Below are positions 4,365-60,849 of a DNA stretch of 64,000 bases, piece after piece (position 1 is the first letter of the stretch; each line of letters starts with the position of its first letter). The position numbers and the translations under genes are program-made. Origin of the DNA: a virus. Its lineage: Duplodnaviria; Heunggongvirae; Uroviricota; Caudoviricetes. Below the pieces are notes generated by a model. That model was not told the origin of the DNA. It ran no database searches and saw nothing but the letters and a program-made list of their open reading frames with translations. The stretch lies in IMG/VR virus record IMGVR_UViG_3300021426_000008; one strand, given 5' to 3'.

Positions 4365-4381
4365 CTCTTTCTGTTCACTTT

Positions 4382-5085: not shown

Positions 5086-7494
5086 TCATTCTTCTTCGTC
5101 CTTCTTTCCTATAAATAATCTATTTAAGCTCATACCTTTATCATTTCTAGTTTTTTTCATTTCAAGCTCATAGCCTTTTTCTGTTAGTTTACTTATAGTT
5201 TTACCAAGTTTCATTGAAAATGCTTTTTCTTTCATAGCTTGGTCTCCTGTTGCCATTTCACTGTGCCAATCTTGATATTCTAAATATAATTCTTTTGTCC
5301 AAATATCCTCTTTACGTTCAACCACATACCATTCTAGGAATTCTTCTAGCTCGGCGTCAAATCCACCAGAGAAAGTACCTTCTAGTTTTTCTCTCATATC
5401 GTCAGTATCTTCTAGTTTTAATTTTCCTAACATCCAATCTATATACATATATCTAGCTTTATTCGCAAACCAAGCCAAACTTCCGTGGTCTAAACTATCT
5501 AATACACCAGTCTCTCTTGTGTGCATTTTCATAACTTTAGTACCTCTGTCTCCATAAGCACTCTCTTTCATTCTGTATTCAGCAACTGCTGCATTATCCA
5601 TTGTGTTCAGTACCAGCTTCCACTGCAATAGCTCATCTTTAACACTATCATCAACGTGGAATTCAGTAGGTAGTATTTTTACCCTACGTCTCATACCTTC
5701 TGATTTATCATATAGTTCAAATTCAAAATTAGTACAAGCAATAATCTGAGGTAGTACGTCTAGTTTCTTTTTAGGTTTGAATTTTTCATTTATATAAACA
5801 GTATCTGTACCAGTTACACCACCTTTAATATATGAAAATGCGTCTCTATTATATACTCTATTTAAGTCGTCTATTACGCATAAAATACCGTGGTCTAGGT
5901 CTTCACCCCAAAACTTATTATCGTGAGGATTGCTGTCAAATATCTTACTTTCGTTAAACATATCTTCACCCAAACATAGTCTGATTAGAGAGGTATAAAG
6001 AGATTTTCCGTTTTGTCCTCCACCTGCAAGTATTACTATCTTTTGAAGTTGATTAGCGGGTATCATACTAGCCCCAGCTATTACCCAAAGCCAATCTTGA
6101 ACCATAGGTTGAGGAATACCTTTTGCGTTTCTTGATAATTGAGATATAAACCAATTTATATTTTTACCCAAATCTTCTTCGTGTTCTTCAACCCATTCTT
6201 TCGGATACCAATTCCACTTAAATATTACGTCTGTTGGAGGTCTAGTGCCAAGCCAAGAAAAGTCGTATGCGTCTGGCGCTATACAAGATAATATTTTATT
6301 TTTACAAATTACATAAGTGTCATTACGTCTTATTATTTTGCTATTAGCTGCACACATTTGCATTAACTGCACCTCCACTTCTTTGAAATACGTTTCTTTG
6401 AAATTCTGTTCACTGTGGTCTTTCAACGCTTGTCTTGGTACGGTCAAATCGGTCTTATAATCATAAGGACCTTCCAACTCTTTATAGAATAACTTTTTGA
6501 AAAGTCCGTCATCTCCTGCTCCTGTGCCATAGAAGTCGAATTGCTTAAATAAATACTCCGCTGCTCTACGTTCGTCTATCTTTTTATCGTCTTTTGATTT
6601 TACTTTCTTCCAATGTCTTTCCTTTTCATCATAATCCCAACCCTCGGAAGATAACATTGCTCCATATTCTTCCCAACGTTTAGGTAGGTCTCCAAATAAA
6701 TCACTATCACTCATAGCTGTACCAATTTTAACTAAATATTGGTCGTGTATAGCTTGAATTAAATCCTTAAACTCACTCATTTCAAAACCATTACTTAAAC
6801 CAAAATAACTACAACGCTCAACTATGAAGTTATGTCTTGAGCCTTCGGTCATTTTCATCAAAGTTGTGAACGGATTATCTTTCAGCGTATATGTTACCGC
6901 GTCTTCTTTTGTCCTGTCACCAGTTTTTCCGCCTTTATGTAATTCAGTATCTTTTAACTTTCCCCATAACCAGTATGGAAGTATGTCCAAATCTTCAATG
7001 TTTATAGCTTTAGGTGCGATTAACTCACTAGGTCTCCAACTAGCTCTTTCGTCACGCTCCATACCACATACTTTTATAATTTGAACACTACCTGGACCTT
7101 TAGTATCAAACGTATAACCAAACCAGTTAGTAGCTCTAGTCATTTCTTTTTTATAAAAATCAGGTTTACGGAATAAAAAATGATAACCCTTTACTGTCTC
7201 TAATATTAAACATTTTAGTTTAGAACGTATGATGATTTCATACATTTCAGCTGCTTCAGTAGCGTTATCATAATCTATGAACACGCAATCATCAGGTACA
7301 ACTCTGGCGTAGTTAGGACCGTCACCACTATCTATTTTCAAATCGTCATAACTTAATAATTTTTTACGTCTTGGTGCTTTACTATCGTTGTATAATTTTA
7401 TTTGCTCTGGGTCGTGTTCTTTAAATTTTTCAATATTAAATTCACGAGGTGTTTCTGGCAACTCGCAGAAAGTAAACTCTATTGTTTTGCTCAT
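5086..7494 (-). CDS. DNA primase-polymerase (AEP prim-pol) fused to an SF3/P4-type helicase
   Basis: N-terminal prim-pol motifs (FIDYDN ... KGYHFLF) and a C-terminal Walker A (ILAGGGQNGKSL) in D5/P4-like helicase context. Confidence 0.75.
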   Translation of the reverse strand: MSKTIEFTFCELPETPREFNIEKFKEHDPEQIKLYNDSKAPRRKKLLSYDDLKIDSGDGPNYARVVPDDCVFIDYDNATEAAEMYEIIIRSKLKCLILETVKGYHFLFRKPDFYKKEMTRATNWFGYTFDTKGPGSVQIIKVCGMERDERASWRPSELIAPKAINIEDLDILPYWLWGKLKDTELHKGGKTGDRTKEDAVTYTLKDNPFTTLMKMTEGSRHNFIVERCSYFGLSNGFEMSEFKDLIQAIHDQYLVKIGTAMSDSDLFGDLPKRWEEYGAMLSSEGWDYDEKERHWKKVKSKDDKKIDERRAAEYLFKQFDFYGTGAGDDGLFKKLFYKELEGPYDYKTDLTVPRQALKDHSEQNFKETYFKEVEVQLMQMCAANSKIIRRNDTYVICKNKILSCIAPDAYDFSWLGTRPPTDVIFKWNWYPKEWVEEHEEDLGKNINWFISQLSRNAKGIPQPMVQDWLWVIAGASMIPANQLQKIVILAGGGQNGKSLYTSLIRLCLGEDMFNESKIFDSNPHDNKFWGEDLDHGILCVIDDLNRVYNRDAFSYIKGGVTGTDTVYINEKFKPKKKLDVLPQIIACTNFEFELYDKSEGMRRRVKILPTEFHVDDSVKDELLQWKLVLNTMDNAAVAEYRMKESAYGDRGTKVMKMHTRETGVLDSLDHGSLAWFANKARYMYIDWMLGKLKLEDTDDMREKLEGTFSGGFDAELEEFLEWYVVERKEDIWTKELYLEYQDWHSEMATGDQAMKEKAFSMKLGKTISKLTEKGYELEMKKTRNDKGMSLNRLFIGKKDEEE

Positions 7495-7823
7495 TATAAA
7501 ACACCTCCATCTGTTAGAACTTTAAATATTTCAGCGATATATTTTATTATATCCTGTTCAAAGATGGTCAGGTTCTTGTAGTTAGCATATATTTGATTTA
7601 TTTCAGCCATTAAAATAAGGCGGAAGTCAGTTTCTTCAACGTCATCACGCTCACGTATCTCATTTAATTCAGATACAATAGTGGTGACAGCAAATCTTCT
7701 TTTCGCCCTATCATAAGAATCCTCCCCTCTTTTCACATAATCTGCGACTACATACCATAGACCATTGGGGATTTTCTCTGTATTTTTTCCTAATTCAAAA
7801 TCAAGTTTAGTTATTTTTAACAT
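7494..7823 (-). CDS. Hypothetical protein
   Basis: ORF in an operon, with start/stop coupled to its neighbours. Confidence 0.4.
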   Translation of the reverse strand: MLKITKLDFELGKNTEKIPNGLWYVVADYVKRGEDSYDRAKRRFAVTTIVSELNEIRERDDVEETDFRLILMAEINQIYANYKNLTIFEQDIIKYIAEIFKVLTDGGVL

Positions 7824-7851
7824 TCTATCGTCCTACCTTTCTACTACTTAC

Positions 7852-8709
7852 TTATTTTATCCATTTTTCTTTTTCACATTTATAAACTCTCATATCAGTT
7901 ACATAGGTGTCAAAGAATTTATCGTAATATTCGTCATTCATATCGCAAAGAATAACATCCGCTTGGTTCACTGCTCGTAAGAGACTTCCCGAACCTGCGA
8001 AGAAGTCCCCAATGACACAACCCTCTTGGTCTGCGTCTGATAGCCATACCAAATGCTCTAATAATTTTCTAGGTTTTTGACAAGGGTGAGCTAGTTTATC
8101 ATCCCTATAATTTCCTTGAGGTTTAGCGAATTTTAGTACACTTGTCTTATCCCATAGTTTTGCTTTTTTATTTAATCTTGCGTTACCTTTTCTTACTACT
8201 ATAATTGGTGTTATGTCATAACTAAAATCACCTGTTATACTACTTATCATATTCGGTTGTTGCCAAAATATTACACGGTTGACGTCGAATAATTGATACG
8301 CCAAATATAAATATTTCATACTCCAAAATATGAACATAAAACTATCGTCTGCTAATTTCTGATGAGCTTTACAATACCAAGTATAACAATAATTCTTGTA
8401 GTCTTCTAATTTAGATTTTTCTTCCCACGGAATAGCAACTTCAAATCTAGGAGTTACCATACCTTTTTCTAAGTCACTCTCGCTAGGAGAGACCTGTGCT
8501 GTGTATCGTGAATGGAATATTGCTGCTCCATTTTTGTTTTTCATATTACCTGTTAATACGTTGTAGGGCGGGTCTATTATCCAGCAGTTAACACTTTCGT
8601 CCTCCAACTTATCTAACCATTCCATACAATCGGCTTTTGTGAATTTTCTATGACTGTAAGGATTTATGGTATTATCTCGTTTCATACTACTGTAAACGAC
8701 ATCTGCCAT
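7852..8709 (-). CDS. DNA methyltransferase (N6-adenine or N4-cytosine, beta class)
   Basis: IIDPPYNV (motif IV) lies N-terminal and DFFAGSGS (motif I) C-terminal. The IV-before-I order is typical of beta-class amino methyltransferases. Confidence 0.65.
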   Translation of the reverse strand: MADVVYSSMKRDNTINPYSHRKFTKADCMEWLDKLEDESVNCWIIDPPYNVLTGNMKNKNGAAIFHSRYTAQVSPSESDLEKGMVTPRFEVAIPWEEKSKLEDYKNYCYTWYCKAHQKLADDSFMFIFWSMKYLYLAYQLFDVNRVIFWQQPNMISSITGDFSYDITPIIVVRKGNARLNKKAKLWDKTSVLKFAKPQGNYRDDKLAHPCQKPRKLLEHLVWLSDADQEGCVIGDFFAGSGSLLRAVNQADVILCDMNDEYYDKFFDTYVTDMRVYKCEKEKWIK

Positions 8710-8720
8710 ACGTGTACCTC

Positions 8721-9050
8721 CTACTCTAGTCCTAGTTCCATCTTTGAATTTACATACTCAACTATATGGTTTAAATTCGGTTCAATTTGTCTCCATATAT
8801 CAATCTTTTCATAATCGTCTCCGTGCAAATCAGAAACATAAAATTCACATTCTGTTTTGCTCCAGTAATCATACATAAATACAGTTTTTAGATATTCGCG
8901 TAATATACTTTTATTATGAATGCTCTTTCTTCTTACTTCGTTTGCTATATCTTCTTTTCTCCATTGTAATATATTGTAGTTTATTACTTTTTTAGTATTA
9001 AAATCCCAACGAAGTACATACCATTCTAAGTTAACATTTTTTACTTTCAT
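8721..9050 (-). CDS. Hypothetical protein
   Basis: ORF in an operon. Confidence 0.4.
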   Translation of the reverse strand: MKVKNVNLEWYVLRWDFNTKKVINYNILQWRKEDIANEVRRKSIHNKSILREYLKTVFMYDYWSKTECEFYVSDLHGDDYEKIDIWRQIEPNLNHIVEYVNSKMELGLE

Positions 9051-9727
9051 AATATCACTGGCTCCCTTACTATACCTTTTCTTTCTTTTTCTTTCTCTGC
9101 CTCTGCTATTTCTCTAAAGTGTTTATTCCATAATTCTAATATAGCATTACCTAGTTTTTTATCTATTGGAAATTTAAACCAACGATAACCAGTTTTAGTA
9201 AGGCTCAAACATCTTAATTCGTCTATTTTTTTCGCTAAGTCTTTTTGCTCTTTATTACCTTTTAATAACATCATATAATATAATTGAAGTTGACATTCGG
9301 TCGACCACTCGTCTAAGTTACTACTTGTTTTCCAGTCTATCATACATATTTTATCATTTACGACAGCTATACAGTCTATTATTCCTTTTACACCTAACTT
9401 CTTATTTATAATACGTTGCTCTGTATATAGTGGGTGTATATCCCAGTCTATTCTTTCTTCTAACCACTCTTTAAAACGAGCTTCGTATTGTGTATATTCA
9501 AGACCTAAGTGAGGCTCAAACTCGTCTTCTGGCTTAAATCTACGGTCATACCAACCTAACCAATCTTCTATATATTTATGTACCGCAGTACCTCTTTCTC
9601 CTGCTGCTTTCAATATTCTCTCTGGAATATCCATTTTTTCAAATTTATTACCAAAAATTGCATTTAGAACGCTAGTGACACCCCTATAAGGAGCGTCAAA
9701 AAATTCGCTATCGCTATAATCTTTCAT
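9047..9727 (-). CDS. PD-(D/E)XK family nuclease (RecB/Cas4/YqaJ-like exonuclease)
   Basis: IIDCIAVVNDKICMIDWKTS matches the D...(D/E)xK core. Confidence 0.5.
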   Translation of the reverse strand: MKDYSDSEFFDAPYRGVTSVLNAIFGNKFEKMDIPERILKAAGERGTAVHKYIEDWLGWYDRRFKPEDEFEPHLGLEYTQYEARFKEWLEERIDWDIHPLYTEQRIINKKLGVKGIIDCIAVVNDKICMIDWKTSSNLDEWSTECQLQLYYMMLLKGNKEQKDLAKKIDELRCLSLTKTGYRWFKFPIDKKLGNAILELWNKHFREIAEAEKEKERKGIVREPVIL

Positions 9728-49919: not shown

Positions 49920-50813
49920 TTATTCTGTGATGTTAAATGCTATAGCTCCTGTTCTATTATTTAATATAAATACATCACTGTATTCTTTTTCATAATAGAT
50001 ATAGTCACCTTTAGTTCCAGCTGCTGGAGCTTCCATACCAACAAATGCGTATTTGCTAGGTGTTAAGATAGCAGATGGGTGTACTAAGAACAAGTTGATT
50101 TGTTTAGCACTATCAGATGGTTCAAATCCTGTAGTGAATGTATAAGCAGTCTTCATTAAGAATGAAGGTACAGATATTAACTTGATTTCGTCAAGTCTAT
50201 CTACAACTCTGTTTATAGTATTTTCACCATTTTGAACACTTCTTGATAGACCAATGTTACTAGCTTGTTTTAATAAAGTTTTAACAGCTGGAGTAACATA
50301 TAGTAATCTTCCTTGTGCAGGTACTAATGCTTCGTCCATTTGTTCCATTAACTTATCAAATACTGCTAATACATTGTCTACGTTTAAAGCTGTAGTGTCA
50401 GCTGTTTTTCCTTCAGCTACCCAATCAGCATATATTTTTGAAATTGTATATGCATCTTTTTCTGGAAATTTTTGTGTTTCGTTGAATACTTGTGTTGCGT
50501 TTTGGATAGTTAATACCATATTAGTATCCATAACGTCTGCTGGGTCTATACTTGTTGACCACTCTCTGTAGAATGTAAGGGTTTTTGTCTCCCATTCATT
50601 ATCTACGTTTCTTTGGAATGTTCCATCTATAGCGTCTCTGTTAACATTTTTTCTACCTGTTACAGAAATTGATGGAATATGAATTGTTTTTGCGTCTACG
50701 AACTTATATGTTCTGTTGTTAGCTACATTATATAATTCACCAAAGTTTAATACGTTTGGATATGCTTGTGCTAACGCTCTTTCGTAGGCTTCGGCATAAT
50801 TAACTGCGCCCAT
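49920..50813 (-). CDS. Putative major capsid protein
   Basis: 297 aa, own strong promoter and long leader, immediately upstream of the neck genes. No motif-level support. Confidence 0.45.
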   Translation of the reverse strand: MGAVNYAEAYERALAQAYPNVLNFGELYNVANNRTYKFVDAKTIHIPSISVTGRKNVNRDAIDGTFQRNVDNEWETKTLTFYREWSTSIDPADVMDTNMVLTIQNATQVFNETQKFPEKDAYTISKIYADWVAEGKTADTTALNVDNVLAVFDKLMEQMDEALVPAQGRLLYVTPAVKTLLKQASNIGLSRSVQNGENTINRVVDRLDEIKLISVPSFLMKTAYTFTTGFEPSDSAKQINLFLVHPSAILTPSKYAFVGMEAPAAGTKGDYIYYEKEYSDVFILNNRTGAIAFNITE

Positions 50814-50829
50814 AATAAATCCTCCTTTA

Positions 50830-50928
50830 AATTATATTTTTTTTAAACTAAAACAAGTTCGTAGCAAACCGAATGGGTCTAACTACACAACTGTTACGTT
50901 ATATAGAAATATTACCCATCCCATTTGC
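50830..50928 (-). terminator. Long hairpin (15-bp perfect arms CAAGTTCGTAGCAAA / TTTGCTACGAACTTG) plus U-tract in the 5' leader of the putative capsid gene
   Basis: Arms at 50844-50858 and 50914-50928. On the minus strand the stem is followed by UUUUAGUUUAAAAAAAA, then the RBS GGAGG. Confidence 0.5.
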
Positions 50929-50994
50929 TACGAACTTGGACCGAATTTCATACCAAATATCGTATGCCCCCAGGACATATCTATTTCTGTTCAT

Positions 50995-51023
50995 ATTATA
51001 ACAAAATTGAACAGAATAGTCAA
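50995..51023 (-). promoter_or_regulatory. Sigma-A-like promoter on the minus strand (TTGACT, 17-bp spacer, TATAAT) overlapped by the inverted repeat TTCTGTTCA-N14-TGAACAGAA
   Basis: Reverse complement of 50981-51030 reads ctcTTGACTattctgttcaattttgtTATAATatgaacagaa. Confidence 0.55.
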
Positions 51024-51041
51024 GAGATATTTTAACTTTTT

Positions 51042-51401
51042 TTATAAAACTTTCCAAACGTCCCAAAGTTCTCTGTCTCTACAGTCAAATGTGTCATATA
51101 CAACGCCGTCAATCACCGTAGTTATATGATTAGGCATAGTTATTAAATATGTTCCAATTTGACATCTTTCGACAAAATCACCAACTGTTTCGTCTGGATA
51201 AGTTTCAACTCTGTCATACCTATAATCCAACAAAGGTTCAACAAAATTCACATCATCAAGTAAGATACCGTTTTTCTTTGCTATTCTACTTAAATCGTCA
51301 TACGTGTCACTCCAACTTTTATCTTCCGCAGTAGAAATAGCACGAATTACACAATCATTCACAAAATTATTATGCTCATTAGCATTATAATATTTATACA
51401 T
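51042..51401 (-). CDS. Papain-like cysteine peptidase-like protein (C39-like?)
   Basis: NDCVIRAIS (Cys) and MPNHITTVIDG (His) in the expected order. 119 aa. Weak. Confidence 0.3.
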   Translation of the reverse strand: MYKYYNANEHNNFVNDCVIRAISTAEDKSWSDTYDDLSRIAKKNGILLDDVNFVEPLLDYRYDRVETYPDETVGDFVERCQIGTYLITMPNHITTVIDGVVYDTFDCRDRELWDVWKVL

Positions 51402-51406
51402 TCACA

Positions 51407-51940
51407 TTACCCCATTTGGCTTATTTTTCTTAAATGCTTTCTAATTATTTGCTTTGCTTCTGGAGAATCAACTTCTTTAATCATCTTTTGAGCAAACTCT
51501 GTGAACAATCTCATAGTGTCTTCTAATGCTTCCATACTATCTTCTCCTGCATTATAATTACCTCTATTATATGCAGAACGACTTTCTGAATATGCAGAAT
51601 AACTTTCTTTCATATCTTCAATCATATCTTCTCCATCGTCGTGACCTCTGTATCTACCTCTACCTGTACCAGGTACACCACGTCTACCGTATCTTCCTTC
51701 TGAATATCCACCTTCTGAATAATCTCCATAATCATTATATCTCATTTTCATAACCTCCTTTTTACATTTCCAGTAGTCAATATTTTCTAAATCTTTATCA
51801 ATATCAACTAACTTATACAATACATCTAATTCGTCACTTGTCAGTTCTGAATTAGAAAATTTTTCGAGTTCTTTACAAACAAGTTCTTTCACTTTATCTG
51901 TATAGCACACTTCTTCTTTCTTTTCTTCTTCCTCCTCCAT
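51407..51940 (-). CDS. Acidic protein with an R/G/Y/S-rich central low-complexity region
   Basis: EEEEEKKEE N-terminus; YSEGGYSEGRYGRRGVPGTGRGRYRGHDDGED. Confidence 0.4.
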   Translation of the reverse strand: MEEEEEKKEEVCYTDKVKELVCKELEKFSNSELTSDELDVLYKLVDIDKDLENIDYWKCKKEVMKMRYNDYGDYSEGGYSEGRYGRRGVPGTGRGRYRGHDDGEDMIEDMKESYSAYSESRSAYNRGNYNAGEDSMEALEDTMRLFTEFAQKMIKEVDSPEAKQIIRKHLRKISQMG

Positions 51941-51951
51941 ATAAACACCTC

Positions 51952-52425
51952 CTATTGCACTCTTTTCTTAATTACTAAATTTGCACTCGCAATAATAGGA
52001 GTTTGTGTATCTATACCAGGAGCAGTTAAATCTGTAAAATCTGGAAGACTAGGTACACTACCTACAGCTATAGTTGTATTACCTTTTCCACATACTTGTA
52101 GTATAGTATCAAATGTTAAAGTGGTGACATCACCTGCGGTAGCAAGAGTTGCTGCAGTAGTTGTTCCAGGAGAAATTATACCATCTTCATATAAAGCTAG
52201 TGCCACTTCTCCAGCTGTAGCTGAGCTAACTACGGCTTTAAATGTAACATCATAATATCCACATTCAAGTAATTGATATAATGGAGAACCTTCTCTGTGT
52301 TGAAGCCAACCATTACAACAATTTGCACTTCTAGTTCTTATATCGTCAACACTAAACGTTATAAAAGCCGTATTATTAGTTAATGTAATTGGTAATTCTT
52401 GTACGCTTTCTATCATAATCATCAA
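51952..52425 (-). CDS. BclA C-terminal-domain-like / C1q-TNF-like jelly-roll protein (putative surface fibre head)
   Basis: Gestalt similarity to exosporium BclA CTD (alternating beta-strand pattern GYYDVTFKAVVSSATAGEVALALYEDGII...TLTFDTILQV). No collagen repeats. Confidence 0.35.
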   Translation of the reverse strand: MMIMIESVQELPITLTNNTAFITFSVDDIRTRSANCCNGWLQHREGSPLYQLLECGYYDVTFKAVVSSATAGEVALALYEDGIISPGTTTAATLATAGDVTTLTFDTILQVCGKGNTTIAVGSVPSLPDFTDLTAPGIDTQTPIIASANLVIKKRVQ

Positions 52426-52430
52426 TTCCT

Positions 52431-52471
52431 TTCTAAAAAATTAAAGAGACAGACGAAACTTGTCTATCTCT
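52431..52471 (-). terminator. Intrinsic terminator (AGAGATAGAC aagtttc GTCTGTCTCT then UUAAUUUUUU) immediately upstream of the RBS of gene 51952..52425
   Basis: Read from the reverse complement of 52431-52471. Confidence 0.5.
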
Positions 52472-52535
52472 GTTCATATAGCAAGTTCTCGTATTCGAGC
52501 ATCCTGTAATCAGGTGCTTGCTGTTTTGTTTTTAC

Positions 52536-53459
52536 TTAAAAATTTCCATTACATCCGCATCCACAGCCGTTATTATTGTTGCAGGTAAATATCGGAGTGC
52601 GTCCATAGACCGGAGTTGCCGGAATTGGGCAGCTGTTCAATCTGTTATACAACTGGTCTACCTCATTACTAAATCCTTGAGAAATAAATGCGTTTTGAGC
52701 AGTTTGACTTGCTCTAAAATCTGCTGTACTTAGTTGTCTTTGTAAGTCTGCAATTTTATCATTTTTAGCTTCAACTTGTGCTTTTACTCCATCTAATTCT
52801 AATTGACATAGTTTATCAAGAATAGCTTGTGTATTAGAAGTTGCGTTTGTAATAATATCTCTTGTATTATTAGCGTCAGCAAATCTTGTAGCATTTCCTT
52901 CATTTTGAATAATGTTTTGAGTTTGACAATTTGCTAATCTATTTTCACAGCAACAATCAGCAAATTGAGAACCTAATTGGTTGAATCCCTGTAACATTGC
53001 TGTTTGATTATTGAAGTTTTGGTTCATATTAGCCATTTGTCTAGCATTAGCTGCAGTTTCAACATTAGCAAATCCAGAACTTACAGTTTGGTTCACTCCT
53101 GCGAATCCATTGCACAAACTTTGAGAAATGTCTCCACAACAGTTGCAAAGTTGTGTACTGATTCCTTGTACTGAATTAGAAATATCATTTAATTGATTTC
53201 CTAATTGTAAAGTATTGAAGCCTTGATTTGTATTTTGCATTATTTCTTTTTGTCCGTTTGATAGCCAAGGATACATATTATCAGCACCTCCGCCGAAGCC
53301 ACCGCCGAAACCACCATTGTTCCAGCCACCCATAGCAAAAATTAGAAATAATATTATCCACCAAGCTCCATTGTCGCCAAAACCTCCAAAACCACCATTG
53401 TTTCTGTCTTGGATTAAAGCTACATCAGAGGCAGATAAACCACCATTTCCATAATCCAT
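52536..53459 (-). CDS. Gly/Cys/Asn-Gln-rich membrane protein (YjcZ-like Gly-Cys style)
   Basis: GGFGGFGDNGAWWIILFLIFAMGGWNNGGFGGGFGGG, several CC/CCC clusters, C-terminus CNNNNGCGCGCNGNF. Confidence 0.4.
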   Translation of the reverse strand: MDYGNGGLSASDVALIQDRNNGGFGGFGDNGAWWIILFLIFAMGGWNNGGFGGGFGGGADNMYPWLSNGQKEIMQNTNQGFNTLQLGNQLNDISNSVQGISTQLCNCCGDISQSLCNGFAGVNQTVSSGFANVETAANARQMANMNQNFNNQTAMLQGFNQLGSQFADCCCENRLANCQTQNIIQNEGNATRFADANNTRDIITNATSNTQAILDKLCQLELDGVKAQVEAKNDKIADLQRQLSTADFRASQTAQNAFISQGFSNEVDQLYNRLNSCPIPATPVYGRTPIFTCNNNNGCGCGCNGNF

Positions 53460-53504
53460 AACTTTTCCCTCCTTTTTAAAATATTTATATTATTGCAATA
53501 ATAT

Positions 53505-53726
53505 CTATTTAAAGGTGTTTTTAAATTTATTAAATTCTGTATCAAAATCTAGTCCACGTTGTTTGCATATATTTCTCGCAAAAGTTTCAACACCTTTTGT
53601 GTTCCCATTTTGAGCCATACTTATCACATTATTTAAAATAGGGTTATTTATATTCATTTTATTCAATATACCTTTGGGAGTTAGTCCTTGAAGCATATAT
53701 TGTTTTATCATATTTATAGGATTCAT
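53505..53726 (-). CDS. Hypothetical small protein
   Basis: ORF. Confidence 0.35.
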   Translation of the reverse strand: MNPINMIKQYMLQGLTPKGILNKMNINNPILNNVISMAQNGNTKGVETFARNICKQRGLDFDTEFNKFKNTFK

Positions 53727-53728
53727 AA

Positions 53729-54232
53729 CTATTTCTCCTTTTTATATTTTAAGTCATCTGCAATGTCTTCTAACTTACGTTTTAGTGTTTTTACGTCTTC
53801 TTTTAAGTCTTTTATATCCTTACTGTTCACATTTTTAAGTTGGTCTTTCAAATCGTCTCCTGTGATGAATTTACTATCCATATTTTTTAATTGTTTTTCT
53901 AAATCATTTTCAGTTATATATTTATTTTTATTTTCTTCATTTTCAATCATAGGTTTATATATAACTACTTTACTTGTACCGTCTTGTTGTAATTGTTTAG
54001 TTATAATAGCTGTACCGTCTGTTAGTGGAAAATAACTAACACTTCCGTCATAAGGAATATCAGTAGCTTTTACAACATCTAAACTATCCACAACCTTCCC
54101 TTGTAAGGAATTTTGTGGTCTATACTGATTTTGTCTTGATATTGGGATTTGTTGTTGAGTTTGTTGATTATAATTCAAATATGGATTAGTATAAGGATTG
54201 TATATATTATTGTAATTATAAGGTTCGTACAT
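53729..54232 (-). CDS. Protein with an N/Q/Y-rich N-terminus and a GerW/YtfJ-like core
   Basis: YNPYTNPYLNY N-terminus. DSLDVVKATDIPYDGSVSYFPLTDGTAII resembles the GerW/YtfJ sporulation-protein motif (D...P.DGSV..P). Coiled-coil C-terminus. Confidence 0.3.
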   Translation of the reverse strand: MYEPYNYNNIYNPYTNPYLNYNQQTQQQIPISRQNQYRPQNSLQGKVVDSLDVVKATDIPYDGSVSYFPLTDGTAIITKQLQQDGTSKVVIYKPMIENEENKNKYITENDLEKQLKNMDSKFITGDDLKDQLKNVNSKDIKDLKEDVKTLKRKLEDIADDLKYKKEK

Positions 54233-54326
54233 AATTATTACCTCCTATCTAAATCCATTTTATAGAAATAAAAAATAAAATGTCAGTCAGACAGAACAAA
54301 AAAAAAATATGAGGATTTTTATATCC

Positions 54327-54899
54327 TCATATCTTACAATAAATTCTAATTGCAAACGCTACTTTATCTAATTTTTCAACTATTCTAGGATTATCCATAT
54401 CCAGAAGTTCGCTGATTTCACTAAAAGTTTTCTCGTCCTTAAATCTATATTTATATACCAAATATTCAATACCGTCTAATTGCTCTAATTTCTTTTCAAA
54501 TTCAATTAACTTATCATCAAATCTATTATATTTGACATATTCAGCTACGTCAGCGTATTTACTAGGTGTGCCGTCTGTATTCCACAAATACATATCTTTA
54601 ATATTTGACTTACCAGTCATTATGAAAGCACTAAATATCGCAAATAATATAGAAATGACTAAATCTACTTTTAGTAAAACAAATATACTAAGCATTATCA
54701 GCGTACTCCAAATTAAACACCTATACCAAGTTTTGAAATGTAGCGCTTTTCCAAATAACCCTCTACTAATCATAAATGTTAGCATTAGTATAACCACATA
54801 TCTCATATCCAGTTTTAGAGCAACACCAGATAGAAATATAATTGCAGTCTCTGCTAAATTAAAAATCAGAGTGGGTATCAATCTTCCTATTCTGTTCAT
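54327..54899 (-). CDS. Membrane protein (about 4 TM) with a C-terminal sigma-70 region-4-like HTH
   Basis: Hydrophobic N-terminal half. C-terminus KTFSEISELLDMDNPRIVEKLDKVAFAIR resembles sigma r4 / ArpU-type HTH. Confidence 0.4.
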   Translation of the reverse strand: MNRIGRLIPTLIFNLAETAIIFLSGVALKLDMRYVVILMLTFMISRGLFGKALHFKTWYRCLIWSTLIMLSIFVLLKVDLVISILFAIFSAFIMTGKSNIKDMYLWNTDGTPSKYADVAEYVKYNRFDDKLIEFEKKLEQLDGIEYLVYKYRFKDEKTFSEISELLDMDNPRIVEKLDKVAFAIRIYCKI

Positions 54900-54981
54900 A
54901 ATGTTTCTCTCCTATTCTCCATCTTCTGGGTTGTAAATCCAAAACCAGCTATCCCAAGGCCAATCTGACATAACTATCACC

Positions 54982-55530
54982 TCACTTTACAAATAGTAAT
55001 GCGTAAAGCATTCCAAAATTTATAATGAAAAATAACAAGTTGAATACAACAGTATTTATAGCTCTAAAAGTTGTGGTTTTAATTCGTTTAGGTTTATCGT
55101 TTCTGTTCCATAATAATTTGTATAAATTTTGTATTTTATTGAGTTTATGTCTGAATATAAATAAAAGCGTAAACATTAGTATACGACTTGATAATACTAC
55201 TAAAATTATATTATGGTTGAATAATATTGACACACCAGCACTAATCAAAATCAGAATTATACTACCTATACTAAACGTGAATATATCTATAATTTGTGAT
55301 TTTTCTTTATATAAAATTTTTAATATTATATAAGTCATAAATGTATAAGTAACCTGAAACCACATATTAAACGGAAATGCTAATTTTAACAATATATATT
55401 CTAATATCATTAAAACAGTAAATAATATTCGTTTTTCTTTTATATTTTTAACCAATATCATAAATAACGCAAAATATATAGCTTCAGGTATTTGTCCCAA
55501 CAATAATTGGTCTAATTTCATAAACAACAC
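54982..55530 (-). CDS. Polytopic membrane protein (5-6 TM), function unknown
   Basis: Hydrophobicity pattern. No recognised catalytic motif. Confidence 0.4.
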   Translation of the reverse strand: MLFMKLDQLLLGQIPEAIYFALFMILVKNIKEKRILFTVLMILEYILLKLAFPFNMWFQVTYTFMTYIILKILYKEKSQIIDIFTFSIGSIILILISAGVSILFNHNIILVVLSSRILMFTLLFIFRHKLNKIQNLYKLLWNRNDKPKRIKTTTFRAINTVVFNLLFFIINFGMLYALLFVK

Positions 55531-55582
55531 TCCTCTTGTTCGTTATTATACCAATTATTTATTTTAATGTCAAATATATTTA

Positions 55583-55885
55583 TTATGATTCTGTTATGTT
55601 CGGTAAGTTATGTAAATACTCCCAATCATTTCCGAATTTTCCTAATGTACTATCAGACAATTTGAAAAAAATTGGAGCGTCAGTTACAACATTTGTGTTC
55701 AAAACAATATCTGTTTTTATTTTGCAAAAATAAATAACATCAGTGCCACGAACTACAAAACATATATCGGGAGTAAAAAGGTTTGTGTCTGGCACACTTG
55801 TATTGTTTGTTATAGTTGCTTTATTAGTTGGAGTTGTTTGTATATTAACTCCATTAAGAGGTGTATTCCAAGTTCGGTTAACCAT
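55583..55885 (-). CDS. Hypothetical protein downstream of the fiber gene (chaperone?)
   Basis: Position. Confidence 0.3.
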   Translation of the reverse strand: MVNRTWNTPLNGVNIQTTPTNKATITNNTSVPDTNLFTPDICFVVRGTDVIYFCKIKTDIVLNTNVVTDAPIFFKLSDSTLGKFGNDWEYLHNLPNITES

Positions 55886-55895
55886 ATCATATATT

Positions 55896-58394
55896 CTACC
55901 GAGCGTATAAGCCTGATATAATTTTCATTTTAGAATTATTTATGTCGTAATAACCAGAAAGTTTACATCCATACGCTGCACCACGTAATGTTGTTTTCGA
56001 CATAACAATATCAGTTGGTGAAATCACAGCCATATTAGCCTCTCCTGTACCAGCAACATAAGGCATAATATATAAATTGTCTCCATTATATAAAACTACA
56101 AAATCGTCTCCAATAAACCAAGTACCAGATTGTGAGGATGAAAATGATTTTGAAATTAAATTATAATCATTAGTTAAAGAGTTGATATGTAATACTTTAT
56201 GGTAATACGTTCCAGAATCTCCGCCCCAAGCCTTCATACCTCCAATATAAACTTGTTCATTAGCTTTACCAATAATATATTCGTGATGATAATCATAATT
56301 TGAAGCAAAGTTAATGGTTGTCAATAATTTTAAACTGTCATCTTCACTAACATACACTTGAATATTGGTCTTAGCCGTAGAAATTCCAATATATAAATTA
56401 TTGCTATATATCGCGTCAAACATACTTGGATTCTCAATCGTAGCGGACAAAGTTCTATCATCGATTTTTTCTAATAGATTATTTTTTAATCTATACGTCA
56501 TCAAACGATATTGGTTACTAAATGTTAAACGAATAATGATGAAAGCTAAATCATTCGTTGCTTGTATACATTTAAGAGTATATGCAGTAGGATTAGACGG
56601 AGTAGATACATCTTCGATAACGTCTTCATAAGTATCTCCTGACGTAACAATATTTATTTTACGAAGAATAATTTGATGATTTGTGTTTGTATTATCTAAT
56701 TTAGTTGAAACTGCTACTTCCGAATTATACACAATGTTTGATAATACATAATTTTGATTATTAAGATTGCTCACAAACTGTTGGTTCGGTGAACGATACA
56801 TATACATTAAGTTATGTTTATCATCTTCGTCAGAATTTGATTTTTCTAAAGTAATACCGTGAGTTGGAAATACACGATTTTCATTATCTAAAACCAAATC
56901 AATTTCTTGAGTATTGATTCCGCTTACATCATTTAATATTGAAGATAAACCAATTTTATTGGCTACTGTTCCATCACCTGTAATTATACCTTTTTTACTA
57001 TAAGCAGTCATACCTGAAAATAAATCACTTTCGTCAGCACTAAATTGTGTTGAAGCGATTATATATTTATTTTCATACTCTATTTCTGTTCCAGAACCAA
57101 CTATATACATTTGATAATAAGAAGTACCAGAAACATCCCAACGATAGTATGTACCACTACTATTCACTAACCCTAATAAATAATACGAATTAGCCGGTAA
57201 ATCTAAAACTTTTCCCTGTGTAACCGCTCCAAGATTAGCCACACTTACTACCACTTCAGTACGAGACATATTTGTTAAATCATAACTATAATATGTCACA
57301 TCCGTTGGTGTTTGAGAAGCATTAAAGACTAAAGGCGCCCATCGATTATTATAAATATACATATTTTGATATTGTGTTGGCACAAAATAAGCTACACTTA
57401 AATCTTGTGATAAATATACAAACCCACGAATACCTAAATCAATAATTTTTCGTAATTTATTCCCTACATTTTTTCCACAAAATATTGTTTCTCCAGAATA
57501 GAAAGCATCCATTCCAGGATTACTTCGTGCGACCAAATTATAATTATCACCACTTTGTTCTCTTAATTTAAAACTATCTACAGGTTGATTAAGTGCGTAT
57601 TCGTATAACCCATCAAAATATTTTCCACCTATTTTCATAAAGTTACCAATTACATTATTCCAAGGTTCCATAGGTTCATATTTTATCACAGTTCCAAATT
57701 CTTGTAATTCTTCTCCACCATCAGTTCTTGTGTATGTTATTCCATCTTGGCTTTCATATTCTACTCTCATTTCGCCAGTATTTCCATAACCATCAAAACC
57801 AAAATTTGAAGATGACATATATACCATTCCTTCAAACCAAGTACCGTCTACTGGTCTAAATCTTCCATAAACGTTTCCTGTAAATGCTTCGTTTAATACT
57901 ACTGTTTGTGGAAAAATACAACTACTAAATTCACTTTCTTCTTGCACCGGTTGTGTAGCATCTCTATATATTATTGCTAAATCACCTTCACTAGGATTTG
58001 GGTCTGCTTGCATAGCTTGTTCAGTTTCAAAAAGTTTTACATCTCCACTTCCACCTTCTTGTGGTACATTAACTATTACAGTACCCAAACCGTCATAATT
58101 TTGGTCGGCGGTATATGAACCGTTTTCTGTAACTGTTTTATTTTGTAAAACTGGACTAACGCTTACACTAATGTTCACATTTGATAAAGCGTCAAATTCT
58201 TGGTCTGGTAATAAATTATAATTACCATTTTGTGTTACGTTTAATGTTTTTGATTGATAATTTCCCCCAGTTTCAATACTTAAAATCTCAGTATCAAAAT
58301 CAGAAGCGGGGATAGGAGTATTATCCCCAGTCTTCTGTTTTATAGCAGAGGAAACGTCATTCAAAAAATTTGTTAAATTGTTAATTCTCGCCAT
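55896..58394 (-). CDS. Tail fiber / receptor-binding protein (paralog A)
   Basis: N-terminus MARINNLTNFLNDVSSAIK and FETEQAMQADP are shared with the gene at 60698..62287. 832 aa. Confidence 0.5.
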   Translation of the reverse strand: MARINNLTNFLNDVSSAIKQKTGDNTPIPASDFDTEILSIETGGNYQSKTLNVTQNGNYNLLPDQEFDALSNVNISVSVSPVLQNKTVTENGSYTADQNYDGLGTVIVNVPQEGGSGDVKLFETEQAMQADPNPSEGDLAIIYRDATQPVQEESEFSSCIFPQTVVLNEAFTGNVYGRFRPVDGTWFEGMVYMSSSNFGFDGYGNTGEMRVEYESQDGITYTRTDGGEELQEFGTVIKYEPMEPWNNVIGNFMKIGGKYFDGLYEYALNQPVDSFKLREQSGDNYNLVARSNPGMDAFYSGETIFCGKNVGNKLRKIIDLGIRGFVYLSQDLSVAYFVPTQYQNMYIYNNRWAPLVFNASQTPTDVTYYSYDLTNMSRTEVVVSVANLGAVTQGKVLDLPANSYYLLGLVNSSGTYYRWDVSGTSYYQMYIVGSGTEIEYENKYIIASTQFSADESDLFSGMTAYSKKGIITGDGTVANKIGLSSILNDVSGINTQEIDLVLDNENRVFPTHGITLEKSNSDEDDKHNLMYMYRSPNQQFVSNLNNQNYVLSNIVYNSEVAVSTKLDNTNTNHQIILRKINIVTSGDTYEDVIEDVSTPSNPTAYTLKCIQATNDLAFIIIRLTFSNQYRLMTYRLKNNLLEKIDDRTLSATIENPSMFDAIYSNNLYIGISTAKTNIQVYVSEDDSLKLLTTINFASNYDYHHEYIIGKANEQVYIGGMKAWGGDSGTYYHKVLHINSLTNDYNLISKSFSSSQSGTWFIGDDFVVLYNGDNLYIMPYVAGTGEANMAVISPTDIVMSKTTLRGAAYGCKLSGYYDINNSKMKIISGLYAR

Positions 58395-60849
58395 TTGTTA
58401 CCTCCTCATTACTTATATTTATTTTATTTACACCATATTGTCTGTGTGTTACATTGTCAGTCATTCCATTTGTAACCAATAAATTATCTAAGCCATCAGT
58501 TAAGTGTATCGGTTTTGCAAGTCCTAAATTGCCTACGTAAACAGTACCAATACGATAGCCATCTTCACATTTTACCATTGCAATCGGAGTGGACCCTTGT
58601 GTTCCATAAGATACACCGTCTTCCCAATGTAATACGTGGTGAGGCATAGTTAGCACAGATGAAGTCATTGTTGACAAATCATAAATTGTCAAAGTACGAA
58701 TAAGACCGGCTACAGACCAACCAGTGACACAATAACGTTTATATAAGTCCATTCTTCCACTTGGATAAGTAACTGTGGTTTCTTCCGTTATCGCTAGGGT
58801 TGATTTGTTAATTCGATTTTTTCCAAACCAACAGTAAGTAGAATCGTGTGTTGAGTTTTCTGTCATTATTATTGGCCAAGCAAGCACAGAGCTTAAATCG
58901 AGAATCTTTGTAAGAGTTTTTCCTCCACTATCTTCCTTTATAGTGTCAGTAATACCATCTAAGCATACATAACGTCCATAAAATTGAGAACGGTCATTAT
59001 TTTGAGTTTGAAAGAAAATGTTAATATCAGTTCCGTTAATATCTGGTGCAATGACTGTCCTCATAGATGTATAAGTTGTTGAGGCAGTAAACGTTAATAG
59101 CTTTTTACATTTAAACTCACTTTCTGTCAAATCTATACTGTATACCCAACCAGATTGTAAAGTATTACTATATATATAAAAATGTATCTTAGAATGTAAA
59201 AGGTCAGGTAAAATGGTAGTCAAATAACAAACTTCTTCACCACTATCAGTCAACGAGATAGATTCTCGTTTTTCTTCGGCATAATAACAACGAATAATTT
59301 CACAAGTAGTCTCTGAACCACTATTCATTTTACTGTAAAATAATATTACACTGTCATCTAAAGGTGTCACGTACGCGTGTCGTTGAGTATATAAAGTGTA
59401 AGAAATTAAGGTTTTTTGTTCAGTGTCAAAAATTTTAAGACTACCACCTGTAAAATCGCAACATATAGCATATCTATTGTTATAAGAGTAGAATGTATAT
59501 TGGTAATTTGTTCCAATCACATAGTCAAATTCAGATAAATCTTTTGGAGTATACAACAAGTCATATTGACCAGATGTAAAATTTTCAGGTAGATTGACAT
59601 TCTTATAAACTGCATTGTTATTCAAATCTGTTAAAGAGCTGATGATATATGGAATATATTTTGTACTAACATAAGACTTTTGACCATATACCTCCTCCTG
59701 AGAAGTTGTTAATGTTTTGACCTGTTCTCCCCAAAGATTACTTAATAGACTAATATTACTAATATAATTTTCTCTGTCATAAGTACCTGTAATGATCCCA
59801 TTTTTACCATATCCAACTAAACCGATAGACAATTCATCTGGAGTTCGAAAAGTTAACTGAGTTTTTGCCAAATAATATTTAGTTTCTGGTTTATGTATCA
59901 ACTCAGTAGTATGACGATACCAATGGGTTTTGCTGGTATAATACATAGTTATACTCTCACTTGGAAATGCTACTGGAATCCAACCATTTTCAAATGCCTT
60001 AAAGTCAATCGGGGTAACAATATCTTCAACCGAAAGATTTCCGTCAAACAAAACATATCTGCTCTCAATAGTATAAACAGCTGTGAGTTCAGTTGAAGTA
60101 TAAGTCTCATTCTCTAAATCTAACGAATATTTATATAACTTAACGTCTGTTCCATAGACACTAACGTATAATTTGTTATTATAAACTGAAGGTGGAACAT
60201 AGTCATCTTTATCAGAGGTTGCAAAAAGTTCATATTCTCCAGTCTTTTTCTTGACTAAAGTTGCCTTGCGAAGGTCTTCTTTAAGTTGAAGTAAAATATT
60301 TTGTAAATGAGTATTTCCAGCAACTTCTAGCCAAACATCTTCACACTCTGCTTCAGAAGTTAGTTCAAAATTAGTAAAAGCTATATTAAAATTAAGATTA
60401 CCTTGTGTTCCATATTGATATAAACCATTAAAACATTTTCCGATTGTTTTGAGCATAACAGTTAGTTGGTCTAAATTACAATGTTCATTATAATAAAGTT
60501 TCATAATATATGGTAATTTGTTATTCTCAGGTAAGGAAGTTTGACGAGTCCAATTATGACCATCCTCGCTAGTGTATTGTAAATAAATGTCTTGAGTTTT
60601 ATTATTGTATAATTTCCATAAAGTAGAAGTAATTTCAATTTTCAAATAACCCAAACTAGTTGACCCAGCCAACAGTGTTCCATTTTCATCATATAAATTA
60701 ACACCGTGAGTAAAACTCCTCCGCTGGAAAATCTTTAATATATACTGTTGGAAAAGCATACATATCAGGCATAGTGATTTCACCATATTGAGCAGCTCGT
60801 TCATCTTTATACTCCAATATATTTGGATATGGTACGAAACCTTCACCAT
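58381..60849 (-). CDS. Tail fiber paralog B, C-terminal portion (continuation of 60698..62287 in the +1 frame)
   Basis: YLQYTSEDGHNWTRQ...CFNGLYQYGTQ aligns with MRVEYESQDGITYTR...KYFDGLYEYALNQ of paralog A. Confidence 0.45.
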   Translation of the reverse strand: MVKVSYHIQIYWSIKMNELLNMVKSLCLICMLFQQYILKIFQRRSFTHGVNLYDENGTLLAGSTSLGYLKIEITSTLWKLYNNKTQDIYLQYTSEDGHNWTRQTSLPENNKLPYIMKLYYNEHCNLDQLTVMLKTIGKCFNGLYQYGTQGNLNFNIAFTNFELTSEAECEDVWLEVAGNTHLQNILLQLKEDLRKATLVKKKTGEYELFATSDKDDYVPPSVYNNKLYVSVYGTDVKLYKYSLDLENETYTSTELTAVYTIESRYVLFDGNLSVEDIVTPIDFKAFENGWIPVAFPSESITMYYTSKTHWYRHTTELIHKPETKYYLAKTQLTFRTPDELSIGLVGYGKNGIITGTYDRENYISNISLLSNLWGEQVKTLTTSQEEVYGQKSYVSTKYIPYIISSLTDLNNNAVYKNVNLPENFTSGQYDLLYTPKDLSEFDYVIGTNYQYTFYSYNNRYAICCDFTGGSLKIFDTEQKTLISYTLYTQRHAYVTPLDDSVILFYSKMNSGSETTCEIIRCYYAEEKRESISLTDSGEEVCYLTTILPDLLHSKIHFYIYSNTLQSGWVYSIDLTESEFKCKKLLTFTASTTYTSMRTVIAPDINGTDINIFFQTQNNDRSQFYGRYVCLDGITDTIKEDSGGKTLTKILDLSSVLAWPIIMTENSTHDSTYCWFGKNRINKSTLAITEETTVTYPSGRMDLYKRYCVTGWSVAGLIRTLTIYDLSTMTSSVLTMPHHVLHWEDGVSYGTQGSTPIAMVKCEDGYRIGTVYVGNLGLAKPIHLTDGLDNLLVTNGMTDNVTHRQYGVNKINISNEEVTNGEN

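Follow-up and report, generated by a model that had tools for sequence, protein, structure and literature searches.

What kind of genetic system sits between the fibre and capsid genes of a tailed phage when its products resemble neither standard head nor standard tail proteins? This question is raised by positions 51,042 to 55,885 of a 64,000-nucleotide stretch of DNA (hereafter the window) from a virus of the Caudoviricetes, IMG/VR record IMGVR_UViG_3300021426_000008. A preliminary description had proposed that this region is a late-operon cassette of nine genes for sporulation- or exosporium-like and membrane proteins. The nine open reading frames (ORFs) are all present on the minus strand at the positions given there, and are labelled g1 to g9 in the order of their transcription; all the cassette proteins are known here from sequence and predictions alone. 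Judged by sequence comparison, this is an accessory cassette that moves horizontally between phages and has two linked units; it is neither a spore gene set nor a part of core head or tail morphogenesis. The first of these units (unit A, 55573-54304) is, by the same kind of evidence, a separate agr-type peptide transcription unit with its own promoter and terminator, and the second (unit B, g4 to g9) is a module with g6 as its core or anchor gene. Taken together, the two units are tentatively read as a peptide-regulated, membrane-associated stalk-and-knob recognition device, a reading of the whole to which we assign a rough probability of 0.4.

The extent of the system was defined by comparison with related loci. 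Nucleotide alignment delimits a conserved unit of eight of the nine genes (g2 to g9, 55573-51042), because g1 has no homologue in any related locus and similarity to the closest relatives begins at 55573-55582. In the close relatives L022, L023 and L032 homology starts exactly there, just above the -35 box of the unit A promoter, which marks the left boundary of the cassette. The nine-gene cassette originally proposed thus stands as a conserved block with the exception of g1, which lies outside it. The right boundary is marked by the capsid-gene promoter, kept in 11 related loci. It had also been suggested that the cassette is bracketed by a terminator and this promoter; both elements exist and are conserved, but the terminator (52445-52471) is internal, located between g6 and g7.

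Evidence for the mobility of the cassette comes from its distribution. It recurs in 34 IMG/VR loci, and the synteny of either g2-g9 or g4-g9 extends over more than 40 independent phage contigs, well in excess of what chance would give. Relatives of 75 kb share the layout of the window, with DUF285 fibre proteins followed by the cassette and then by the capsid gene. On the 197-kb contig L004, a different genome context, g2-g9 are found in the same order with 50-89% identity, and here the cassette follows a gp25-like baseplate gene rather than preceding the capsid gene. Six further and more divergent contigs carry g4-g9 without g2-g3, so unit B also travels without unit A. Parts of the module are also present in named phages: Butyrivibrio virus Ceridwen carries g9, g6 and g7, Dulem virus 35 carries g9, g6, g7 and g8, Clostridium perfringens phage XP41-N3 carries g4-, g5- and g6-like genes together with a slot protein (see below), and the TAG-recoded crAss-like phage cr125_1 carries a g6 homologue. 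Depending on the phage, the module is placed before the capsid gene, by holin or endolysin genes, after the replication genes or between lysis and early genes, and this variable location fits a self-contained accessory system. The idea that these genes are not standard head or tail morphogenesis genes was borne out, the block behaving as a distinct accessory cassette. Database searches gave few names for its products. Pfam, NCBIfam and PHROGs contain no functional name for g2, g4, g5, g6, g8 or g9; PDB profile searches with g2, g3, the g3 C-terminus, g4, g6, g7, g8 and g9 returned nothing significant; no cassette protein matched the PADLOC defence-system profiles at E <= 0.05; and no credible Rfam family was found within 50700-56000.

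What, then, does unit A encode? The preliminary description had recognised two polytopic membrane proteins, one of them with a sigma-r4-like helix-turn-helix (HTH). Several hydrophobic segments in g2 and in g3 support the polytopic part of this statement, and the HTH is weak (E 0.012-0.26). Overlooked at that time was that the two membrane genes form an agr-type unit with an unannotated AgrD-like micro-ORF. In the product of g3, residues 1-100 appear to form a membrane domain of the AgrB family, and a cytoplasmic HTH-like domain of about 90 residues is joined to it. At the family level, 24 of 25 members match AgrB at E <= 0.01 (best E 1.4e-6), many homologues have a precomputed match to PF04647, and one of them is named by NCBI as an "accessory gene regulator B family protein". 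Residues R46, G50, H54, C61 and S65 are invariant across the 25 sequences, among them H54 and C61, a membrane-proximal His and Cys seven residues apart as expected for the catalytic pair of an AgrB protein. In Staphylococcus aureus AgrB this pair is H77/C84.

Directly 5' of the AgrB-like gene, an equivalent of the micro-ORF is found in 37 of 37 loci, each preceded by a GGAGGTG-type Shine-Dalgarno sequence. In the window it encodes the 19-residue peptide MSDWPWDSWFWIYNPEDGE behind a GAGGTGA ribosome-binding site. The 34 distinct variants range from 14 to 19 residues and follow the consensus W-[ND]-S-[WF]-F-[WF]-[LI]-[FY]-D-x-E-[DE]-G-E. The position of the nucleophile is occupied by Ser in 32 of them and by Cys in one, the change from Ser to Cys being seen in the divergent L004 peptide MGGWDCWILLCNPDEGE. 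One to seven residues precede the Ser, four or five hydrophobic residues follow it, and an acidic tail of six or seven residues closes the peptide. It is this succession of nucleophile, four to five hydrophobic residues and acidic tail, which is the logic of AgrD, that leads to the comparison, and a small gene beside agrB with a central Cys or Ser and a short hydrophobic ring segment is indeed what the micro-ORF is found to be. On these grounds it looks like a candidate leaderless AgrD-type pre-peptide, at most a new leaderless variant. Autoinducing peptides already described include the Ser-lactones RIPT[STGFF], NSA[SSWVA] and GBAP, as well as aromatic rings such as [CLWFT] and [CPWII] (PMC12312760).

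The third component of the unit, g2, is located 5' of the peptide and g3 wherever a locus includes sequence at that place. Its translation probably starts at the ATG at 55521 (MKLDQLL...), as indicated by the homologues, the program-made ORF start being too long. Between relatives with 96-100% identity from g3 to g9, g2 falls to 71-73% nucleotide identity where its flanks reach 91-100%, and the peptide differs too; at the protein level, g2 distances of 31-47% separate loci whose g3 differs by 2-8%. Hypervariability has been described for agr specificity groups (PMC12312760), and by analogy the variation of g2 and the peptide next to a 96-98% identical g3 resembles such groups. Because of this local hypervariability, g2 is the best candidate for the specific partner of the peptide, either as receptor or as exporter. 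It has no match in Pfam, NCBIfam, PHROG or PDB, and hhalign detected no relation between g2 and g3.

Regarding the transcription of unit A, its promoter scores 12/12 against the sigma-70 consensus, a site shared at 12/12 by L022 and L032. Of 31 loci, about 19 have a site of at least 10/12 5' of g2, evidence that carries little weight in AT-rich DNA. The intergenic fold of the terminator has a z of -4.7. A second predicted hairpin 3' of the g3 terminator (54233-54300, minus strand) pairs with the ribosome-binding site of g4 (AGGAGG) and may couple g4 translation to read-through. The connection between both units is argued from their linkage, since every g3-family locus found (37 recovered via g3) has a g6-type module immediately 3', in several genome contexts that include phages of about 200 kb.

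The central gene of unit B, g6, had been described as Gly/Cys/Asn-rich with CCC and CGCGC clusters, a composition that was confirmed (15% Asn, 12% Gly, 9% Gln and 14 Cys, with an invariant CCC at 169-171 and GCGCGC near the C-terminus). Its conserved motifs are an N-terminal GLSxxDVAxL, the hydrophobic segment, CCC, TRDI, NTQAILDxLC, ASQxAQN, CP(V/I)P and the CGCG tail, together with a coiled coil. The membrane helix also attributed to this protein corresponds to the stretch AWWIILFLIFAM, which exists as 12-16 hydrophobic residues flanked by Gly and Trp and is too short for a 19-residue window; a membrane helix is no more than plausible on sequence grounds. The supposed resemblance of its N-terminus to YjcZ did not hold, with no Pfam or NCBIfam match at E <= 1, and is one of composition, the hydrophobic run having Gly-rich flanks. 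The protein matches PHROG 16490 (E 3e-29) and belongs to a family of 947 clusters at 50% identity (E <= 1e-3), all of about 200-370 residues, stand-alone and never fused; at 90% identity more than 8,000 clusters are counted, in gut- and rumen-type phages. Many profile matches to residues 5-132 of influenza HA2 were obtained, all of them non-significant (E 1-9).

Some individual g6 genes depart from this pattern. In L055 (8394-10497) g6 is split into ORFs of 171 and 104 residues by an inserted endonuclease-like ORF of 327 residues. The insert may represent an intron that carries a homing endonuclease, or it may disrupt the gene. The homologue in cr125_1 (L056, 2930-5514) is annotated as "spike protein/glycoprotein"; a holin gene, a LysB-like gene and the gene of a DUF7841 protein whose tail is R/Y/D-rich come before it. 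In-frame TAG codons in these genes point to stop-codon recoding. The N-terminus of g6 (LSxxDVAxL...GG) was also considered as a double-glycine leader cut by g9, a possibility that is unsupported, as g9 has no C39 match. Nor does this N-terminus fit the canonical spacing of double-glycine leaders.

If g6 provides a stalk, g7 is the candidate for its head. The preliminary description had compared this 157-residue protein with the C-terminal domain of BclA, and structural modelling supports the comparison: according to the model, g7 is a stand-alone jelly roll of the BclA-C/C1q/TNF-like type, with the ten strands in TNF-like arrangement. The best structural matches are BclA-type C-terminal domains and ExsFA, with 16-17% sequence identity. 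Its true start is probably the ATG at 52416 (MIESVQ..., 154 residues), 9 nt after the GAAAGGAA site, because the homologues indicate so, and the program-made ORF of 157 residues is too long. The protein belongs to PHROG 20016, and a CC motif is invariant in its disordered N-terminal loop. Window g7 itself has no match to Pfam BclA_C (PF18573) at E <= 1; homologues from the g7 slot of L028 and L038 reach 23-24 bits (E ~5e-5), below the cutoff of 38, and the slot proteins of L019-L021, 31% identical to g7, have precomputed BclA_C matches. Absence of any spore-family match, coupled with structures of ordinary head or tail type, had been named beforehand as the outcome that would speak against the preliminary description; what was found differs, since same-slot relatives match BclA_C. 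Foldseek searches against viral models retrieved many stand-alone relatives of this fold, of 130-150 residues, in uncultured phages, and the fold was also retrieved at the tips of collagen-repeat fibres. A literature search on phage BclA/C1q modules and membrane-anchored TNF-like phage proteins found nothing relevant.

Sequence comparison places g7 in a swappable slot. Its identity varies from 30 to 99% across loci while that of its neighbours exceeds 85%, and in L023 a precise replacement, visible in the nucleotide sequence, has exchanged it along with the intergenic RNA. Eight loci and XP41-N3 have in this slot an unrelated Cys-rich family of 125-149 residues, for which hhalign found no relation to the g7 family.

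The spacer between g6 and g7 folds into a branched stem and the terminator-like hairpin followed by a U-run, after which comes the ribosome-binding site of g7 (fold z = -3.9). When 10 divergent loci are aligned, both partners have changed in 14 of 26 pairs, and 82% of cells are paired compared with 33-48% when partners are slid; none of 500 shuffles attained the observed value. No Rfam family matches this RNA. In close relatives it is 98-100% conserved, above the flanking genes. Another structured element is found in the capsid leader (50814-51041, minus strand), 3' of the capsid promoter, where a conserved box AGAAATAGATATGTCCTGGGG and a hairpin of about 36 bp precede a U-rich tract. This hairpin (-50.9 kcal/mol, z = -8.2) is kept in 11 related loci with compensatory changes at 3-5 pairs, and the layout, that of a promoter-proximal terminator, suggests that the late genes are controlled by antitermination or RNA processing.

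The other genes of unit B encode smaller proteins, some of them of low complexity. In g4 a P/Y/N/Q-rich N-terminus precedes a conserved beta-rich core of about 60 residues (GKVVDS.DVVKA.DIP.DGS.SYFPLTDG) and a charged coiled-coil tail; it is syntenic in L004, L006, L011-L016 and many of the L022-L055 loci, and is always followed by g5. The likeness of g4 to GerW/YtfJ was not sustained, as none of nine family members match the Pfam Spore_YtfJ model at E <= 1 and no NCBIfam match was found. The description of g8 as an acidic protein with an R/G/Y-rich core agrees with its net charge of -12 and a disordered R/G/Y-rich insert in the core of a helical protein, which matches PHROG 28802 (E 5.5e-16) and has its homologue in Dulem virus 35. 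In some relatives the gene that follows the knob gene encodes a DUF7841 protein, and hhalign detected no relation between this family and g8. Finally, g9 matches PHROG 3754 (E 6e-20), and D16, C17, H92 and D103 are invariant across 11 homologues, including those of Bacillus phage Tsamsa and Pseudomonas phage PAK_P1, which occur alone in the early regions of these phages. The Cys...His peptidase-like character attributed to it finds support in the invariant C17, H92 and D103, but not in a profile: none of the 11 members has a Pfam match, Peptidase_C39 included, nor was a PDB sequence match found. Since these three residues are invariant from the window phage to Tsamsa and PAK_P1, g9 is likely a thiol enzyme and a candidate for a papain-like one.

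How would such a recognition device work? The AgrB domain of g3 would remove the acidic tail (YNPEDGE) of the 19-residue pre-peptide and cyclise it through Ser8 into a lactone with an SWFWI ring, as AgrB does with AgrD. The processed peptide would leave the cell, with the hypervariable g2 acting as its specific receptor or exporter, and the HTH-like tail of g3 might be the output that tunes expression of the downstream genes. The product of g6 would form a helical stalk, probably a trimer, whose Gly-flanked hydrophobic segment would keep it in or on the cytoplasmic membrane, and a trimeric g7 knob would cap this stalk via the Cys-rich ends of both proteins, with the intergenic terminator setting the g6:g7 ratio. 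Processing or cross-linking of a component might fall to g9, and g4, g5 and g8 may serve as assembly helpers. At the envelope of the infected cell, the device would carry out strain-specific recognition, for example in receptor masking, exclusion or adhesion.

Several observations weigh against this proposal. In unit A, the match of window g3 to AgrB (E 4.4e-4, 20.1 bits) lies below the cutoff of 23 and spans profile positions 28-110 of 185 only. The micro-ORF departs from AgrD in length, having neither the 24-25-residue amphipathic leader nor the 14-15-residue tail. The HTH signals at the C-terminus of g3 are weak (Sigma70_r4 E 0.26, TIGR02937 E 0.012, PHROG 1740 E 0.017), with no family member at E <= 0.01 and no PDB sequence match. 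Among about 50 window ORFs scanned, neither an AgrC kinase nor an AgrA LytTR regulator was seen, about 14 kb of the genome being outside the window. The role of g2 is a guess from its hypervariability, and the correlation between peptide and g2 distances is modest (rho 0.33). In unit B, membrane anchoring, trimerisation of g6 and the g6-g7 complex are the parts that we infer: the hydrophobic stretch fails the 19-residue Kyte-Doolittle window and is short for a transmembrane helix, and the AlphaFold2 model of g6 (from a 40-sequence alignment) has a mean predicted local distance difference test (pLDDT) score of 37, which is unusable, and contains helices only. Moreover, as g7 lacks a signal peptide, its display outside the cell would need an unknown export route.

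Other explanations were weighed against these observations. Unit B might be a virion fibre on the head or the tail, with g6 as stalk, g7 as receptor- or glycan-binding tip, g8, g4 and g5 as chaperones and g9 as maturation protease. Its place in the late strand between fibre genes and capsid gene, in the window and its relatives, speaks for a structural role, and so does the position between portal/MuF genes and scaffold/capsid genes in Dulem virus 35 and in L012/L013. To this can be added that no signal peptide is present in any of the proteins (none was evident by eye in g4, g5, g7, g8 and g9), that g7 is swapped as a receptor-binding module would be, and that the endonuclease-like insert in the g6 of L055 is of a kind common in essential late genes. 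In other phages, however, the module is located away from structural genes: it follows the replication genes in L014, and XP41-N3 and Ceridwen have it between their lysis and early genes. A promoter, terminators and a regulatory unit of its own come with the module; fibres do not usually contain a hydrophobic segment of membrane type; all of the module's families are of "unknown function" in PHROGs; and relatives of g9 reside in the early host-takeover regions of Tsamsa and PAK_P1. A virion fibre, the main rival reading, appears somewhat unlikely. An accessory of lysis or release, in which g6 would be a membrane-anchored coiled coil of spanin- or fusion-like type or a holin regulator and the other genes its helpers, is improbable. 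It draws on the module being within a few genes of holin or endolysin in L011, L016, L019-21, L033, L038, L040, Ceridwen, XP41-N3 and cr125_1, and on the layout of g6, whose hydrophobic Gly-rich segment, long Asn/Gln-rich coiled coil and conserved Cys recall i-spanins and class I fusion stalks, a layout mirrored by the HA2 matches. Those matches are not significant, however, and window-type phages put the module before the capsid gene and not by the lysis genes, while the ends of late operons are also the usual site of unrelated cargo genes. In addition, the endolysins of the relatives carry LysM, CW_7 and SH3 wall-binding domains, which point to monoderm hosts with no need for a spanin, and the hypervariable knob and the thiol enzyme would be left unexplained.

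The spore reading deserves separate consideration, being the one from which the analysis started. On this view the host spore is the target, and the proteins imitate or alter constituents of its coat or exosporium (BclA, ExsFA, YjcZ, GerW). The structural matches of g7 to BclA-type domains and ExsFA agree with it, as do the Cys-rich character of g6 and of the alternative slot protein, the Tyr/Gly-rich composition of g4 and g8, as in coat proteins, and the fact that the carrier phage XP41-N3 infects a spore-former, C. perfringens. Nonetheless, no YjcZ, Spore_YtfJ or other spore-family profile is matched by the window proteins or their families, g7 has neither a collagen-like repeat nor a BclA N-terminal domain, and its fold is widespread in viruses of non-sporulating hosts. 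Carriers of the module include phages infecting Butyrivibrio fibrisolvens as well as a crAss-like phage, all of them with non-sporulating hosts. As a general function, a role specific to spores is accordingly unlikely, and the proposed sporulation- or exosporium-like set comes down to one fold, that of g7, and amino acid composition, with no other spore-family match; this reading is highly improbable. A further view is that both units are unrelated neighbouring cargo, unit A being an agr-like host-manipulation set without functional tie to unit B. Such independence would account for the occurrence of unit B without unit A and for the separate promoter and terminator of the latter, and phiCDHM1 provides a known case of agr genes on a phage that act on host signalling (PMC3901668). 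It is countered by the 37 of 37 g3-recovered loci in which unit A is immediately 5' of a g6-type module, across several genome contexts, and can be considered quite improbable. The stalk-and-knob device regulated by a peptide remains the preferred reading. A more specific version of its first half, regarded as unlikely, is that unit A constitutes a minimal phage communication circuit, made of a leaderless AgrD-type peptide, an AgrB fused to a DNA-binding output and the kinase-less sensor g2, by which the apparently virulent relatives would count infections in specificity groups and switch on the g6/g7 device via the terminator RNA.

The positions of all the features discussed are collected in Table 1.

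Table 1. Genes and regulatory elements of the cassette and its borders, in window coordinates.
Feature	Position	Strand	Description
Unit A promoter	55545-55573	minus	TTGACA-17-TATAAT, extended -10 TG
g1	55583-55885	minus	outside conserved block
g2	54982-55530	minus	polytopic membrane protein, 179-182 aa
micro-ORF	54912-54971	minus	19 aa, unannotated, between g2 and g3
g3	54327-54899	minus	AgrB-family membrane domain + HTH-like tail
Unit A terminator	54304-54335	minus	13-bp stem, then T10 run
g4	53729-54232	minus	P/Y/N/Q-rich N-terminus, beta-rich core, coiled-coil tail
g5	53505-53726	minus	73 aa, Asn/Lys-rich
g6	52536-53459	minus	307 aa, Gly/Asn/Gln/Cys-rich, helical
Structured intergenic RNA	52426-52535	minus	between g6 and g7
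g7	51952-52425	minus	predicted BclA-C/C1q/TNF-like jelly roll
g8	51407-51940	minus	acidic helical protein
g9	51042-51401	minus	119 aa, Cys-His-Asp protein
Capsid-gene promoter	50995-51023	minus	TTGACT-17-TATAAT with TG

The phage that carries this cassette has a low-GC genome (~33%) with the organisation of a tailed phage. Replication genes for DNA polymerase, helicase, primase, RNA ligase and several methyltransferases are found on the plus strand. A long late operon on the minus strand runs from fibre-like proteins through the cassette to the PHROG-422 major capsid protein, connectors, tail tube, tape measure (1778 residues) and distal tail proteins. The major capsid protein is 55% identical to that of the Clostridioides difficile phages phiCDHM1 and phiC2, and megablast of the region against GenBank phages gave no DNA match. 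About 14 kb of a genome of about 78 kb lie outside the window, as identical g6 proteins sit on contigs of up to 77.8 kb. Neither an integrase nor a repressor was seen among the window ORFs scanned. The gene for the large terminase subunit (1503-2933, minus strand) adjoins two large DNA methyltransferase genes, a primase gene and an exonuclease gene (1503-9727, minus strand); neither a portal gene nor that of the small terminase subunit was seen in the window, and both are probably beyond its start. The two fibre-like genes 5' of the cassette (55574-60849) encode proteins of 822 and 832 residues, overlap by 14 nt and are replaced in close relatives, as seen by comparing the window with relatives that include L006, L019 and L028. 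Several different fibre paralogues share the first ~110 residues of the 832-residue protein at their N-termini, and in the relatives many of these paralogues bear DUF285 repeats. Relatives have been binned in metagenome-assembled genomes labelled Anaeroplasmataceae, "Tenericutes", Bacilli and Clostridia, and the host is therefore uncertain. Wall-less hosts of Anaeroplasma type, as these labels would have it, were rejected, the LysM, CW_7 and SH3 domains of the relatives' endolysins arguing for walled ones.

The relevance of these findings depends on which parts of the proposal hold. Peptide communication between phages is so far known mainly from arbitrium systems, and the only earlier phage-borne agr gene set found is that of phiCDHM1 (PMC3901668). 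If the interpretation of unit A is true, it would represent a second and structurally different class of phage signalling, widespread and diversifying. Assigning a function to the g6 family would annotate a recurrent block of viral dark matter, and the swap-prone BclA-C-type knob of g7 is a candidate specificity determinant. It is important to consider that micro-ORFs and intergenic RNAs of this kind are overlooked by standard phage annotation.

Which features are new can be seen by setting the cassette beside known systems. Both phage-borne agr genes and BclA-C-like phage proteins were already known; apparently undescribed are the combination of a leaderless peptide, an AgrB-HTH fusion and a hypervariable partner, the constant association of this set with a large module of uncharacterised genes, and the conserved intergenic RNA. 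The window proteins of unit B belong to PHROG 16490/9288 (g6), 20016 (g7), 28802 (g8) and 3754 (g9), all without assigned function. For g7 the closest known proteins are the BclA C-terminal domain (PF18573; PDB 1wck), the F-BclA tip of F-ENA (9h38), ExsFA/BxpB (7r1m) and the trimeric jelly rolls of C1q and TNF. In contrast to BclA, g7 is a stand-alone protein of 154-157 residues; it has neither collagen-like GXX repeats nor an N-terminus for exosporium targeting, the cassette contains no collagen-like gene, and the protein is encoded by phages, among them phages of non-sporulating hosts. Influenza HA1/HA2, reovirus sigma-1, the adenovirus fibre and the collagen-tailed C1q-like fibres of giant viruses offer an analogy of layout only, that of a helical stalk and a hydrophobic Gly-rich segment with a variable jelly-roll head; unlike these two-part attachment devices, the stalk and head proposed here are encoded by separate genes, g6 has no significant sequence or structural match, and the system is known here from its genes alone. 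Regarding unit A, the resemblance to agr of Firmicutes and to the agrB-agrD-agrC genes carried by the Clostridioides phage phiCDHM1 (PMC3901668) consists of three features. A membrane protein of the AgrB family has the catalytic His and Cys at a distance of seven residues; beside it is a small gene for a peptide in which a central Ser or Cys is accompanied by a hydrophobic stretch and an acidic tail; and a hypervariable region is centred on this peptide gene. AgrD comprises 40-50 residues, with an N-terminal amphipathic leader of 24-25 residues and a charged tail of 14-15 (PMC12312760), whereas the micro-ORF peptides have 14-19 residues, no amphipathic leader and a tail of six to seven. Also unlike agr, g3 has a truncated AgrB domain with an HTH-like domain attached, and the hypervariable partner, g2, is a kinase-less membrane protein encoded upstream.

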